In this document: in pieces, positions 50,196 to 51,953 of the stretch | Numbering within the stretch: position 1 is the stretch's first letter | How the letters are laid out: every line of letters starts with the position of its first letter | Assembly: GCA_040902265.1 (NCBI GenBank) | Contig: JBBDXQ010000108.1 | Location: 1,706 to 65,705 of the forward strand | DNA: 64,000 bases | DNA from: Anaerolineales bacterium | Lineage (GTDB): Bacteria > Chloroflexota > Anaerolineae > Anaerolineales > UBA11579 | Direction of reading: 5' to 3' | Translations under genes and position numbers: made by a program | Notes under the pieces: generated by a model | The model's database searches: none | Told to the model about the DNA's origin: nothing | What the model saw: the letters and a program-made list of their open reading frames with translations, nothing else

Positions 50196-51953
50196 ATGGT
50201 AGTCCTTGAAAAGGAAAATACAAAATTAACCACGCCTTATGGAGGCGCCTTAGTTAACCTGGTCAAGACAGGCGCTGAACGTGAAGACTTGATAGAAATG
50301 ACCAATAAGCTGCCGGATGTGCGCCTTTCCCCTCGTTCCCTGCACGACCTAGAGCTGCTGGCGGTAGGGGCATTTTCACCTTTGGATCGCTTCATGGGCA
50401 AGGCCGATTATGAAACCGTAATGGAAGATATGCGTCTGGCCAACGGGATGCTTTTTCCGATCCCGCTCACCCTCACCGTGTCGCAAGAAGACCTGTCCAC
50501 TGGCGCTGACCAGGTGGTGTTGCGCGATGTGCGCAATAACGGCTTTGCTATTATGGATATTGAAGAGACCTTCCCCTGGAATGCCCAGGAGGAGGCTCTG
50601 AAAGTGTTGGGTACAACCGATCCGCGCCATCCGCTTGTTTCTGAAATGATTCGATGGGGAGACCTTTGCATTTCCGGCAAGCTGCACGTGTTCGAGTTGC
50701 CAGCTTATACTGACTTTGCCGAATTACGTCGCTCACCTAGCGAAGTGCGCCAACAACTTGAGTTGATGGGCAACAGCAACGTTGTCTTTTTCCAGACGCG
50801 CAATCCCATGCACCGCATCCACGAAGAGCTCACCAAGCGCGCAGCTGAGCAGGTGGAGGGCAGCCTTGTGATCCACCCCGTGGTCGGTATGACCAAGCCT
50901 GGTGATGTGGACCATTACACCCGCGTGCGTGTATATCGCGCGCTGGTCGAGAACTACTACGATAAGAGCAAGACAATGTTGAGCTTGCTGCCGCTGGCCA
51001 TGCGCATGGCTGGCCCGCGTGAGGCGGTGTGGCACGCCATTATTCGCCGCAATTACGGCGCCACGCATTTCATTGTGGGCCGAGACCATGCCGGTCCTGG
51101 CAAGGATGCAACCGGGGAACCCTTCTACGGCCCCTACGACGCCCAGGAATTGCTAGCCAAACACCAGGACGAAGTAGGCGTGCACATGCTGCCGTTCAAG
51201 GAATTGCTCTACCTGGCAGATGATGGCCGCTACGTGGAAGCCGGTACGGAACCCAAAGGCGCCCGCATCCTGAATATCTCCGGGACACAGGTGCGTGACG
51301 ACTATTTAGCCAAAGGCAACTACCTGCCCGAATGGTTCACTCGCCGCGAAACTTCCGAGATCTTGTTGGAAATGTACCCACCCCGCCATAAGCAGGGCTT
51401 TTGCTTGTGGTTCACCGGCCTCAGCGGCTCCGGCAAATCTACTATTGCTCAGATCGTGACTTCCATGCTTATGGAGCATGGTCGCCAGGTGACCGTGCTG
51501 GATGGTGATGTGGTGCGCACACATCTTTCCAAAGGGCTCGGTTTCAGCCGGGATGACCGTGATACTAACATCCTGCGCATCGGTTTTGTGGCCGGTGAGC
51601 TTGTGCGCCAGCATGGCGCTGTGATCTGCGCCGCTATCAGCCCCTTCCGCGCCGCTCGCAACGAGTGTCGTAAGATGGTGGGCGAAGATCGCTTCCTTGA
51701 GGTTTTTGTCAACACGCCTATTGAAGTCTGCGAAGAGCGCGACGTCAAGGGCTTGTATGCCAAAGCACGTCGCGGGGATATCAAGGGCTTTACGGGTGTA
51801 GATGACCCCTACGAAGAACCGCGTAACCCCGAGATCATGGTGGATACGGTCAAGAACTCCCCCGAGCAGAACGCCCGGCAGATCATCCAGTTTCTCGAGG
51901 AGCGCGGCTTATTGCTGCCTACAACCAATCACCGGGCTGAAAAAGCTGCATAA
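50196..51953 (+). CDS. sat-cysC: bifunctional sulfate adenylyltransferase / adenylylsulfate kinase (PAPS synthesis)
   Basis: 585-aa ORF. ATP-sulfurylase blocks '[14 protein letters not shown]', '[15 protein letters not shown]', '[12 protein letters not shown]'. C-terminal APS-kinase P-loop '[14 protein letters not shown]', 'LDGDVVR', '[16 protein letters not shown]'. Confidence 0.95.

Follow-up and report, generated by a model that had tools for sequence, protein, structure and literature searches.

A fused ATP sulfurylase/APS kinase as a probable PAPS source in a Chloroflexota glycan locus with four sulfotransferase genes

Introduction

What is an enzyme that activates sulfate doing among genes for a surface glycan? 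Surveys of Chloroflexota MAGs as a rule assign sat/cysC to sulfur assimilation (e.g. PMC11005417). A stretch of 64,000 nucleotides from an Anaerolineales MAG (contig JBBDXQ010000108.1), here called the window, invites a different reading. A first-pass annotation, made from the DNA letters and translated reading frames, drew attention to a bifunctional ATP sulfurylase/APS kinase (SAT/APSK; protein accession MEX2144542.1, locus tag WD740_08100) and four candidate sulfotransferases, and proposed that PAPS is made in the locus for a multiply sulfated glycan. Does the SAT/APSK retain the features of both activities? Are the sulfotransferases convincing? Is the association kept in other genomes, and could the enzyme serve general sulfur metabolism instead?

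Results and discussion

The SAT/APSK enzyme

The SAT/APSK gene (50196..51953, + strand) is an intact ORF with an ATG start, encoding 585 amino acids. The PUA_2 (E 6e-46), ATP-sulfurylase (E 6e-81) and APS_kinase (E 6e-65) domains of Pfam occur in one chain, which scores 830 bits against a cut-off of 669 for NF004040, the NCBIfam equivalog for bifunctional sulfate adenylyltransferase/adenylylsulfate kinase. The fusion first read from the sequence is thus confirmed, and the three peptides quoted in its support are all found in the translation. The best solved relative is the Aquifex aeolicus enzyme (PDB 2GKS, 777 bits over residues 37–573). The likeness, judged by sequence and architecture, extends to the PUA-like, ATP sulfurylase and C-terminal APS kinase domains and to both sets of motifs, so that the window enzyme is classed as Sat-type and Aquifex-like; its own setting is a glycan locus that includes sulfotransferase genes.

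The sulfurylase motifs QxRN, HxxH and GRDHAG are present, in peptides of 14 and 12 residues, at positions that are invariant across our alignment A1. In the kinase domain the P-loop GxxGxGKS/T and the DGD, ISP and KGFTG motifs are all retained, the translation including LDGDVVR, ISPFR and a further 11-residue peptide. The sulfurylase motifs are degenerate in APS kinases with an inactive sulfurylase-like domain, such as the T. denitrificans enzyme, and the kinase motifs are degenerate in fungal sulfurylases, whose kinase-like domain is regulatory. No transmembrane segments are found in SAT/APSK or in any of the four sulfotransferases. SAT/APSK is a predicted cytoplasmic, fully functional-looking enzyme that would convert sulfate and two ATP to PAPS.

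The sulfotransferases

HMM assignment places all four candidate ORFs above the Pfam gathering scores: ST1 (35547..36443, +; PF00685, 57.9 bits), ST2 (44603..45625, +; PF13469, Sulfotransfer_3-type, 91.8 bits), ST3 (60542..61402, +; PF00685, 38.4 bits) and ST4 (61396..62253, +; PF00685, 40.9 bits). At least three sequence types had been proposed and pairwise identities give three. ST3 and ST4 are tandem paralogues sharing 48% identity, ST2 is about 26% identical to that pair, and ST1 is essentially unrelated in sequence. Loss of the PAPS-binding residues had been named as a result that would count against the proposal. All four translations retain a 5′-phosphosulfate-binding loop (PSB, PKxGTT-like) and a 3′-phosphate-binding motif (3′-PB, RDP..R..S-like), namely QKAGTTS and LLRDPVARAFS in ST1, ARSGTTL and IVRDGRDTLIS in ST2, PKSGSHL and IYRDPRDMIVS in ST3, and PKSGTHL and IYRDPRDVVVS in ST4. 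A jackhmmer search in which the four served as queries, run against all window ORFs of 120 amino acids or more, returns only these four, and no hidden sulfotransferase was found among the ORFs that lack a Pfam match (starting at 41287, 14591, 24209 and 76, and the minus-strand pair described below).

ST1 is of the carbohydrate type. It aligns over approximately 210–240 residues with the heparan-sulfate 3-OST/NDST enzymes and the bacterial protein 3RNL (E 1e-20 to 3e-25; 2.5e-21 for 3-OST, 3e-25 for 3RNL), and the alignment takes in the PSB loop, the 3′-PB motif and the glutamate of GESSP, which coincides with the catalytic-base region of 3RNL. In contrast to heparan-sulfate systems, there are no GAG synthase genes within the window. 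The match of ST2 to protein-tyrosine sulfotransferases (TPST) is weak (E 3e-9) and covers the N-terminal PAPS-binding part only; in this weak alignment W/Q occupies the position of the TPST glutamate. ST2 also matches the NCBIfam NoeE model weakly, with 31 bits against a cut-off of 500. ST3 and ST4 match only cytosolic SULTs, marginally. A histidine of ST4 aligns with that of the SULT KSHLP motif in a register that is ambiguous, notably for ST3.

The surrounding genes

Two sets of nonulosonic-acid genes lie on the + strand. Directly following SAT/APSK are a classical, FabG-like SDR of 273 amino acids (51980..52801; adh_short_C2, 1e-47), a NeuA-like CMP-nonulosonate synthetase fused to a HAD domain of the KdsC/Kdn-9-P-phosphatase type (52786..54036; CTP_transf_3 and Hydrolase_3) and a short NeuB-family ulosonic-acid synthase with no SAF domain (54033..54905; Pfam NeuB, 2e-78). 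A KpsC/S-like (Capsule_synth) protein comes next (54937..56526; PF05159, 31.9 bits, with a marginal match to KpsC, PDB 6MGD), which we infer to be the transferase for the CMP-ulosonic acid. The other module (36440..41290) comprises a PseB-like dehydratase, an RmlD-like reductase, a NeuB with SAF domain, a GT4-fold protein and a cytidylyltransferase, assigned with Pfam and NCBIfam. In all, the window holds two NeuB (205.7 and 263.5 bits) and three CTP_transf_3 proteins (Pfam), and therefore both the synthase and the CMP-activating cytidylyltransferase expected for nonulosonic-acid biosynthesis. The short NeuB matches the NCBIfam NeuB and PseI models, and PDB 6NCS and 8H2C; the fusion protein matches PseF, KdsC and KDN-9-P phosphatase, and in the PDB NeuA (9FTB), YrbI/KdsC and 3E81. 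Since the NeuB and CTP_transf_3 proteins of the window all fall below the NCBIfam cut-offs for NeuB, PseI and PseF, as the fusion protein does for KdsC and KDN-9-P phosphatase, the sugars are named only to class, as nonulosonic acids.

Downstream of the KpsC/S-like gene are a small acyl/peptidyl carrier protein with a WDSL serine site (56534..56791, +), an amino acid–[carrier protein] ligase resembling class II aminoacyl-tRNA synthetases (56784..57971, +; NF005479, 170 bits and below the cut-off, with a weak Pfam tRNA-synt_2b match) and an N-acyl/aminoacyl decoration module of a GNAT acetyltransferase, an Antibiotic_NAT-type N-acyltransferase and a DUF4910/M28 protein (57952..60539, +; Pfam). 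ST3 and ST4 come next, then a GT2 glycosyltransferase and the third cytidylyltransferase (62263..63917, +; Pfam). The export genes are at the other end of the locus, with Wzm (ABC2_membrane permease, 30918..31817, +) and Wzt (31801..33102, +), the latter combining ABC_tran with a glycan-binding Wzt_C domain (34.2 bits, cut-off 30.4). This completes an ABC-transporter-dependent export set, in the same gene string as SAT/APSK and the sulfotransferases. A first KpsC/S-like protein and a SAM methyltransferase (32951..35550, +; Pfam) lie immediately 5′ of ST1.

ST2 is followed by a GFO/IDH/MocA oxidoreductase (45627..46613, +; Pfam), for which the ATG at 45627 gives a protein of 328 residues, in keeping with relatives of 328–340, and is likely the true start rather than 45459. 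Next are two minus-strand genes for GT-C-like polytopic membrane glycosyltransferases. Paralogue 1 (46615..48228) has about eight TM-like segments, a C-terminal soluble domain and a loop motif, DDAMISMQYA, and no Pfam match. Paralogue 2 (48218..49852) has about nine TM-like segments; among its homologues are some with PF13231 and some annotated as GT39 or arabinofuranosyltransferase, and homologues adjoin SAT/APSK at nine of the loci compared (L001–L004, L016, L023, L024, L027 and L049). Neither gene is sulfur-related. Because an SDR follows SAT/APSK, synthesis of a sulfonated sugar of the sulfoquinovose type was also considered and rejected, as the SDR is classical and not of the extended SQD1 type. 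Such a pathway, moreover, draws on sulfite and not on PAPS.

A divergent intergenic region of 343 bp separates the minus-strand pair from SAT/APSK. SAT/APSK is indeed the first gene of a + block, as the first-pass annotation had it. The description of a second operon needs qualification, however. In a relative with 74% identity (L008) the minus-strand pair is absent and SAT/APSK lies within one co-directional gene string, so the arrangement is lineage-specific. The leader contains an 11-bp inverted repeat with a T-run (50131..50165, +) that is retained by the relatives with 90% and 84% identity, in which the leader on either side has diverged; it is a putative attenuator or operator. In Rfam the hairpin gives only sub-threshold matches, to generic leader/terminator models, and nothing in the window reaches gathering scores. 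A promoter/terminator scan of 46.4–52.1 kb gave no excess over shuffled expectation.

Absence of sulfate-reduction genes

The statement that cysH, cysI and cysJ are not nearby also stands. Pfam scans of 55 ORFs spanning the window reveal no PAPS_reduct or sulfite-reductase family, so neither gene type that would mark an assimilatory sulfate-reduction operon adjoins SAT/APSK. CysQ (PAP phosphatase; Inositol_P) and sulfate permease are likewise absent from the window by Pfam. At other loci the gene for a TauE-family permease precedes SAT/APSK (L020, L021 and L026) and, in Acidobacteriota, CysQ adjoins it.

Conservation of the locus

We compared SAT/APSK loci across genomes, tallying neighbours within 10 kb and defining clades from an NJ tree. 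Sulfotransferase calls were confirmed by Pfam; cysH was searched with a seed sequence and matches were confirmed by Pfam PAPS_reduct and a C-terminal ECG[LIM]H motif. The window enzyme falls in an Anaerolineales-rich clade with 19 other loci. Fifteen of these have a sulfotransferase, 15 a NeuB-type synthase and none cysH, against 18, 1 and 12, respectively, of the 66 loci outside the clade, both sets of counts being uncorrected for shared ancestry. Sulfotransferase and/or nonulosonic-acid genes occur at 17 of the 19. Across the clade SAT/APSK is accompanied by sulfotransferases, Wzm/Wzt and/or nonulosonic-acid genes. Of the Chloroflexota orthologues that fall outside the clade, roughly half lack a sulfotransferase within 10 kb; the immediate neighbours of these are heterogeneous, with no sulfite reductase or PAPS reductase among the top families.

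Maps drawn for 11 GTDB species reveal a recurrent cassette: an ST2-type gene, the GFO oxidoreductase, (GT-C), SAT/APSK, SDR, NeuA/phosphatase, NeuB, the KpsC/S-like gene and an ST3/4-type gene. The SDR is always directly 3′ of SAT/APSK in the cassette and the KpsC/S-like gene adjoins NeuB throughout the clade. The ST2–GFO pair is conserved upstream of SAT/APSK at L008, L009, L014, L016, L027 and L049, and ST3 orthologues (42–58% identity) follow right behind NeuB or the KpsC/S-like gene at L014, L016, L020, L024, L027 and L030. A PP-binding ORF occupies the position of the window carrier protein in L001 and L008. The gene architecture around SAT/APSK is the same in relatives with 90%, 84% and 74% identity. 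A relative with 82% identity, from a complete Anaerolineales genome, has other glycan genes, yet SAT/APSK is surrounded by GT4–ST–GT4, Wzm/Wzt and PMT_2, and in Kouleothrix, where SAT/APSK is 70% identical, the order is SAT/APSK, Wzm, Wzt, a sulfotransferase and a sulfotransferase/methyltransferase fusion. That this synteny with sulfotransferase and glycan genes is kept across approximately 30% protein divergence supports an in-locus PAPS source for glycan sulfation.

The cassette is present in activated-sludge filaments, in Ca. Villigracilis, with related SAT/APSK–sulfotransferase loci in Kouleothrix.

The role of SAT/APSK

On this evidence SAT/APSK in this lineage probably serves mainly as the PAPS source for sulfotransferases that act in a surface-glycan pathway. 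The obvious competitor is general sulfate activation for cysteine and methionine, with the position in a glycan locus incidental or convenient through dual use. MAG studies routinely read Chloroflexota sat/cysC in this way (PMC11005417). The enzyme is highly conserved, as the Kouleothrix identity illustrates, and the 12 distant orthologues directly beside cysH, mainly in Planctomycetota and Gammaproteobacteria with one in Chloroflexota (SAR202), belong to the same orthologous family. We nevertheless regard assimilation as an unlikely explanation, given the clade tallies, the placement of SAT/APSK in L008 within a single string with sulfotransferases, and a sulfotransferase linkage that persists where all the glycan genes around it have been replaced (L005 and L006). 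In the Planctomycetota loci the cysH neighbours bear a C-terminal CxxC, and were they APS-type reductases the APS-kinase domain would be dispensable for assimilation. SAT/APSK may still be the sole sulfate-activating enzyme, serving cysteine synthesis as well as the glycan pathway.

Two other possibilities concern what is sulfated. At least one sulfotransferase might modify only the non-reducing terminus of the chain, making a signal for the Wzt C-terminal domain; the model is WbdD, which makes a phosphate/methyl cap, in contrast to sulfation of every repeat unit. The Wzt_C domain is suggestive in this respect, as are the methyltransferase and ST1 directly behind wzm–wzt and a KpsC/S-like gene, and the 1000-residue sulfotransferase–methyltransferase that follows wzm–wzt in Kouleothrix, with a stretch that by eye is repetitive and coiled-coil-like. 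Against this, four sulfotransferases exceed the need of a cap, ST2 and ST3/4 are distant from wzm/wzt and tied to sugar-synthesis genes, and a coiled-coil ruler protein was not seen in the window, so a terminal cap also appears improbable. That some of the enzymes act on protein tyrosine, a lipid or a small molecule is more doubtful again. The best solved relatives of ST2 are the protein-tyrosine enzymes, and ST3 and ST4 marginally resemble cytosolic SULTs, but the matches of ST2–4 extend little past the shared PAPS-binding core, ST1 is clearly of carbohydrate type and the neighbouring genes are all concerned with sugar nucleotides, glycosyl transfer or export.

A model for glycan sulfation

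With glycan sulfation as the preferred reading, SAT/APSK would make PAPS in the cytoplasm for the four soluble sulfotransferases. The glycan, which we infer to contain one or two nonulosonic (sialic-acid-like) sugars, would be assembled on a lipid carrier and would receive its sulfate there, on the cytoplasmic side of the membrane and within reach of PAPS. The finished, lipid-linked chain would then leave through Wzm/Wzt, and the GT-C-type membrane transferases might pass it on or extend it outside. In several relatives the ST3/4-type gene sits between NeuB and the KpsC/S-like gene, so that this type would most likely sulfate the nonulosonic residue or the one directly beside it; ST1 (heparan-sulfate-sulfotransferase-like) and ST2 probably target other residues. 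We offer only tentatively, and think it less probable than not, that the segment SAT/APSK–SDR–NeuA/phosphatase–NeuB–(ST3-type)–KpsC/S-like encodes enzymes that make and transfer a nonulosonic (Kdn/sialic-acid-like) residue bearing an O-sulfate. In a limited literature search sulfated sialic acids were reported for animals only, and neither a sulfated nonulosonic acid from bacteria nor a paper tying Chloroflexota to nonulosonic acids was found.

Comparison with known systems

The coupling of sulfate activation to specific sulfotransferases acting on a surface or secreted glycoconjugate, as proposed here, is familiar from rhizobial nodPQ/nodH and mycobacterial cysDNC/stf. In those cases activation is by CysDN-type enzymes, each product has one sulfotransferase, and the acceptors are lipo-chitooligosaccharides or a trehalose lipid.

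The rarity that the first-pass annotation ascribed to such loci is overstated. In both Cobetia marina KMM 1449 and Vibrio sp. KMM 8419 the capsule cluster includes PAPS genes together with at least one sulfotransferase and an ABC transporter; the capsule structures are solved, the sulfate is chemically proven, and the authors consider PAPS genes with sulfotransferases a hallmark of sulfated-polysaccharide synthesis (PMC11766843, PMC11641403). These are polysaccharide clusters of 70–80 genes, and the window likewise brings together PAPS synthesis, sulfotransferases, glycosyltransferases and ABC export, with differing enzyme types. PAPS synthesis in the marine clusters depends on CysD/CysN–CysC, with a GTPase-type sulfurylase, as opposed to the non-homologous Sat-type fusion, and export on KpsMTED as opposed to Wzm/Wzt with a Wzt_C domain. 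The Cobetia cluster has the CysQ and sulfate permease that the window lacks, and Vibrio has, outside the cluster, another set of sulfate-activation genes for housekeeping. The marine systems make sulfated rhamnose in Gammaproteobacteria; the window, part of a Chloroflexota genome, encodes four sulfotransferases and two modules for nonulosonic acids. The general kind is therefore already described, and the window locus is a Chloroflexota variant in which a Sat-type fused enzyme is coupled to nonulosonic-acid genes.

Concluding remarks

The central proposal, that an in-locus PAPS source and four sulfotransferases predict a sulfated glycan, is supported by the clade synteny and the PAPS motifs. 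The predicted product is an acidic, sulfated glycan, of a type known from marine bacteria though not from Chloroflexota. The known mechanism of glycan sulfation is left unchanged. If the reading is correct there are three sulfotransferase types with candidate acceptor sugars suggested by their neighbours, and polysaccharide sulfotransferases are wanted for engineered sulfated glycans.

Chloroflexota filaments are the backbone of flocs and granules in wastewater. Sulfate and nonulosonic acids have been measured together in the EPS of granular sludge, in a study that calls the biosynthetic pathways not known (PMC10483923). Given its presence in activated-sludge filaments, the cassette could be a genetic source of both and, if so, would give sulfated sialic-acid-like polymers in wastewater a defined set of genes open to testing. 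It would follow too that sat/cysC in this clade more likely report glycan sulfation than sulfur assimilation.

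The PAPS-generating enzyme and its leader

SAT/APSK, encoded at 50196-51953 on the + strand from an ATG start, is a protein of 585 residues with no membrane segments and with Pfam PUA_2, ATP-sulfurylase and APS_kinase domains. The first-pass annotation of a fused ATP-sulfurylase/APS-kinase at 50.2 kb is thereby confirmed; the score against the NCBIfam equivalog for bifunctional sulfate adenylyltransferase/adenylylsulfate kinase is 830 bits (cut-off 669), and the closest solved structure is the Aquifex aeolicus bifunctional enzyme (2GKS, 777 bits). The translation carries all the catalytic signatures of the sulfurylase half (QTRN, HRIH and GRDHAG) and retains those of the kinase half, including KGFTG. 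Enzymes are known from fungi and Thiobacillus in which one of the halves is catalytically dead and regulatory; SAT/APSK is unlike these because the catalytic signatures are intact in both halves.

A perfect 11-bp inverted repeat, ACAGCCTGCTT / AAGCAGGCTGT, with a 3-nt loop and a following T-run, occupies 50131-50165, about 30 nt upstream of the SAT/APSK start. It is near-identical, base for base, in relatives with 90% and 84% identity, the remaining leader having diverged. Further upstream an extended -10-like box, TGGTATTAT, at approximately 50107-50116, is kept down to 68% relatives. No Rfam family matches the leader hairpin at threshold; the repeat could be an attenuator or a palindromic operator.

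The sulfotransferases

The four sulfotransferase ORFs first noted from their start positions, ST1 (35547-36443), ST2 (44603-45625), ST3 (60542-61402) and ST4 (61396-62253), all pass Pfam gathering scores, and an iterative search of the window found no fifth. Both PAPS-binding motifs, the absence of which would have counted against sulfotransferase function, are kept in all four. The 5'-phosphosulfate loops are QKAGTTS, ARSGTTL, PKSGSHL and PKSGTHL in ST1 to ST4, respectively, and the 3'-phosphate motifs are RDPVARAFS, RDGRDTLIS, RDPRDMIVS and RDPRDVVVS. None has a membrane segment. Pairwise identities resolve three sequence types, in agreement with the earlier estimate of at least three: ST3 and ST4 share 48% identity, ST2 shares about 26% with either, and ST1 stands apart. 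ST1 is similar to the 3-O- and N-sulfotransferases of heparan sulfate and to a bacterial structure, 3RNL. The match of ST2 to tyrosylprotein sulfotransferases is limited to the PAPS-binding part, and that of ST3 and ST4 to cytosolic SULTs is marginal.

The surrounding locus

Pfam scans of 55 ORFs indicate a single glycan super-locus that spans the full 64 kb, nearly all on the + strand. It encodes many GT4 and GT2 glycosyltransferases, methyltransferases, one DegT aminotransferase, a radical SAM enzyme (19327-20838), a flavin amine-oxidase/GLF-like protein (22769-24190), several large PMT_2/GT-C-like membrane proteins, and the exporter pair Wzm and Wzt, the latter with a Wzt_C domain (30918-33102). 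Two KpsC/S-like proteins are encoded along with two synthases of the NeuB family, and a HAD domain of the KdsC/Kdn-9-P-phosphatase type is fused to one of three CMP-type cytidylyltransferases. Among the 55 ORFs we found neither a PAPS or sulfite reductase nor CysQ or a sulfate permease, consistent with the initial remark that sulfate-reduction genes are absent nearby.

The upstream half is unusually rich in GT-C proteins for a bacterial glycan locus. The region 14591-28409 encodes four polytopic membrane proteins of very large size (691, 883, 869 and 521 residues); two match PMT_2 and two have no Pfam match. Between the gene blocks, on the - strand, are two paralogous membrane proteins (46615-48228 and 48218-49852) with 8-9 TM-like segments, no Pfam match and a DD loop motif, DDAMISMQYA, after the first TM segment. 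One of the two is 100% identical to NCBI MEX2144542.1 of an Anaerolineales MAG, encoded on a contig of 67.2 kb that the window covers almost completely. A few homologues are annotated as GT39 or arabinofuranosyltransferase, and homologues adjoin SAT/APSK in at least nine other loci. The pair probably represents an undescribed GT-C subfamily.

A small carrier protein with a WDSL serine (56534-56791) is followed by a class-II aaRS-like amino-acid--carrier-protein ligase, two N-acyltransferases (GNAT and Antibiotic_NAT types) and a DUF4910/M28 aminopeptidase-like protein. This module (56534-60539) points to an amino sugar or nonulosonic acid that carries aminoacyl or unusual N-acyl groups; the module is kept in the 74-90% relatives and missing from the minimal cassette of four loci (L020, L024, L027 and L030). 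A 302-residue protein lacking a Pfam match (41287-42195) keeps its position between a cytidylyltransferase and a GT2 gene in seven loci. The longest ORF of the GFO/IDH/MocA oxidoreductase, 45459-46613, overlaps ST2 by 167 nt. Since relatives have 328-340 residues and the ATG at 45627 gives 328, the latter is probably the real start.

Conservation in other genomes

SAT/APSK shares 84-92% identity with proteins of Anaerolineales MAGs and 70% with that of Kouleothrix. The gene architecture of the window recurs on contigs of the 90%, 84% and 74% relatives; the last lacks both GT-C genes, so that SAT/APSK there lies inside a single co-directional gene string. In the 82% relative, from a complete 2.24-Mb Anaerolineales genome, the other glycan genes differ, yet GT4-ST-GT4, Wzm/Wzt and PMT_2 still flank SAT/APSK. 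In Kouleothrix, the genes after SAT/APSK encode Wzm, Wzt, one sulfotransferase and a sulfotransferase-methyltransferase fusion. In this 1000-residue fusion (locus L006, 15155-18157), encoded immediately 3' of wzm-wzt, Pfam confirms a methyltransferase domain and, at the N-terminus, a sulfotransferase bearing a KSHELP motif; judged by eye, there are also a coiled-coil-like repetitive stretch and a possible second methyltransferase-like C-terminal region. The protein recalls the chain-length terminator WbdD, with a sulfotransferase where WbdD has a kinase.

A survey using one genome per GTDB species gave 80 further loci at 49-70% identity, in which ORFs were called, clustered and labelled by window-seeded profile searches, key labels being confirmed with Pfam. 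A recurring cassette in MAGs of Anaerolineales, Ca. Villigracilis and Chloroflexia has the order ST2-type, GFO oxidoreductase, (GT-C), SAT/APSK, SDR, NeuA/phosphatase, NeuB, KpsC/S-like and ST3/4-type. An ST3-type gene is immediately 3' of NeuB in three loci, in two of them (L024 and L030) between NeuB and the KpsC/S-like gene. In L049 (9953-11729) SAT/APSK, the cytidylyltransferase and the KpsC/S-like gene are each broken into two overlapping ORFs, probably through assembly frameshift errors rather than as pseudogenes.

Other contexts for PAPS synthesis were evident. Acidobacteriota orthologues are frequently accompanied by CysQ, a TauE-family permease and sulfotransferases. CysQ, a PAP phosphatase, is 3' of SAT/APSK in nine loci (L065, L067, L070, L071, L075, L076, L082, L085 and L088), mainly of Acidobacteriota with L071 from Acidimicrobiales; most have a TauE/SafE-family permease and six of the nine have sulfotransferases. 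These loci are a distinct PAPS-use module with PAP recycling, a step without counterpart in the window. Chloroflexota orthologues outside the window's clade have mixed neighbours, whose top families include neither a sulfite reductase nor a PAPS reductase. In five loci from Ardenticatenales, Caldilineales and Promineifilaceae (L037, L039, L040, L047 and L051) the tblastn match spans about 2.3 kb, as opposed to 1.7 kb, with a separate APS_kinase ORF 3' of the sulfurylase; sulfurylase and kinase are apparently not fused here, or an insertion separates them.

A probable role in glycan sulfation

A neighbour-joining tree of SAT/APSK groups the window with 19 other loci, of which 15 have a sulfotransferase within 10 kb, 15 have NeuB and none has cysH. 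The corresponding values for the 66 loci elsewhere in the tree are 18, 1 and 12. Fisher p values are 9e-5 for sulfotransferases and 3e-12 for NeuB, though the shared ancestry of the loci makes these values purely descriptive. Together with the conserved linkage, these tallies support the original proposal that an in-locus PAPS enzyme serves the sulfotransferases in making a sulfated glycan. Housekeeping sulfate assimilation, or dual use, would suit the cysH-linked loci, chiefly of Planctomycetota and Gammaproteobacteria (several Xanthomonadales-like) with single Gemmatimonadota, Acidobacteriota and SAR202 examples; for the window enzyme it is unlikely. Action of the sulfotransferases on non-glycan acceptors is also unlikely, and the gene context speaks against it.

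The best-supported reading is that SAT/APSK would make cytoplasmic PAPS for the sulfotransferases of the locus. In ABC-transporter-dependent pathways the polymer, attached to a lipid carrier, is completed at the cytoplasmic face and then exported, which fits sulfation by soluble PAPS-dependent enzymes. Gene identities, motifs and the conserved linkage are direct observations; which sugars would accept sulfate, how many sulfates each repeat would carry and the final attachment site are inferences. The likeliest target of the ST3/4-type enzymes would be the nonulosonic residue or its neighbour, given the tight linkage to the NeuA/phosphatase, NeuB and KpsC/S-like genes; that the product is a bacterial sulfated nonulosonic acid is a tentative suggestion. 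The sulfate might instead cap the chain end and be recognised there by the C-terminal domain of Wzt. The presence of that Wzt_C domain, the methyltransferase-ST1 pair downstream of wzm/wzt and the Kouleothrix fusion protein favour such a cap, which we nevertheless regard as improbable.

Comparison with known systems

The first-pass view that sulfated-glycan systems are known from only a few cases was too narrow, since clusters combining PAPS synthesis, sulfotransferases and ABC export have been described and the sulfated structures solved (PMC11766843, PMC11641403). Cobetia marina has cysNC, cysD, cysQ and a permease between kps operons; Vibrio sp. KMM 8419 has a second cysNDC copy and three sulfotransferases. 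The authors call this combination a 'hallmark' of sulfated-polysaccharide synthesis (PMC11766843, PMC11641403). The window differs in phylum (Chloroflexota), in its non-homologous Sat-type fusion as activating enzyme, in using Wzm/Wzt rather than KpsMT, in its conserved coupling to nonulosonic-acid genes and in having four sulfotransferases. The locus is a variation on the described clusters that adds no new mechanism, and would hardly surprise a glycobiologist.

Our literature search found no paper tying Chloroflexota to nonulosonic acids, and according to one mat study its two Chloroflexi MAGs contain no sulfotransferase (PMC9723792). Measurements on granular-sludge EPS have revealed both sulfated and nonulosonic-acid glycoconjugates, for which no genes had been identified (PMC10483923). 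The locus can help in the annotation of sulfur genes in Chloroflexota and is a candidate genetic basis for sulfated, sialic-acid-like EPS.
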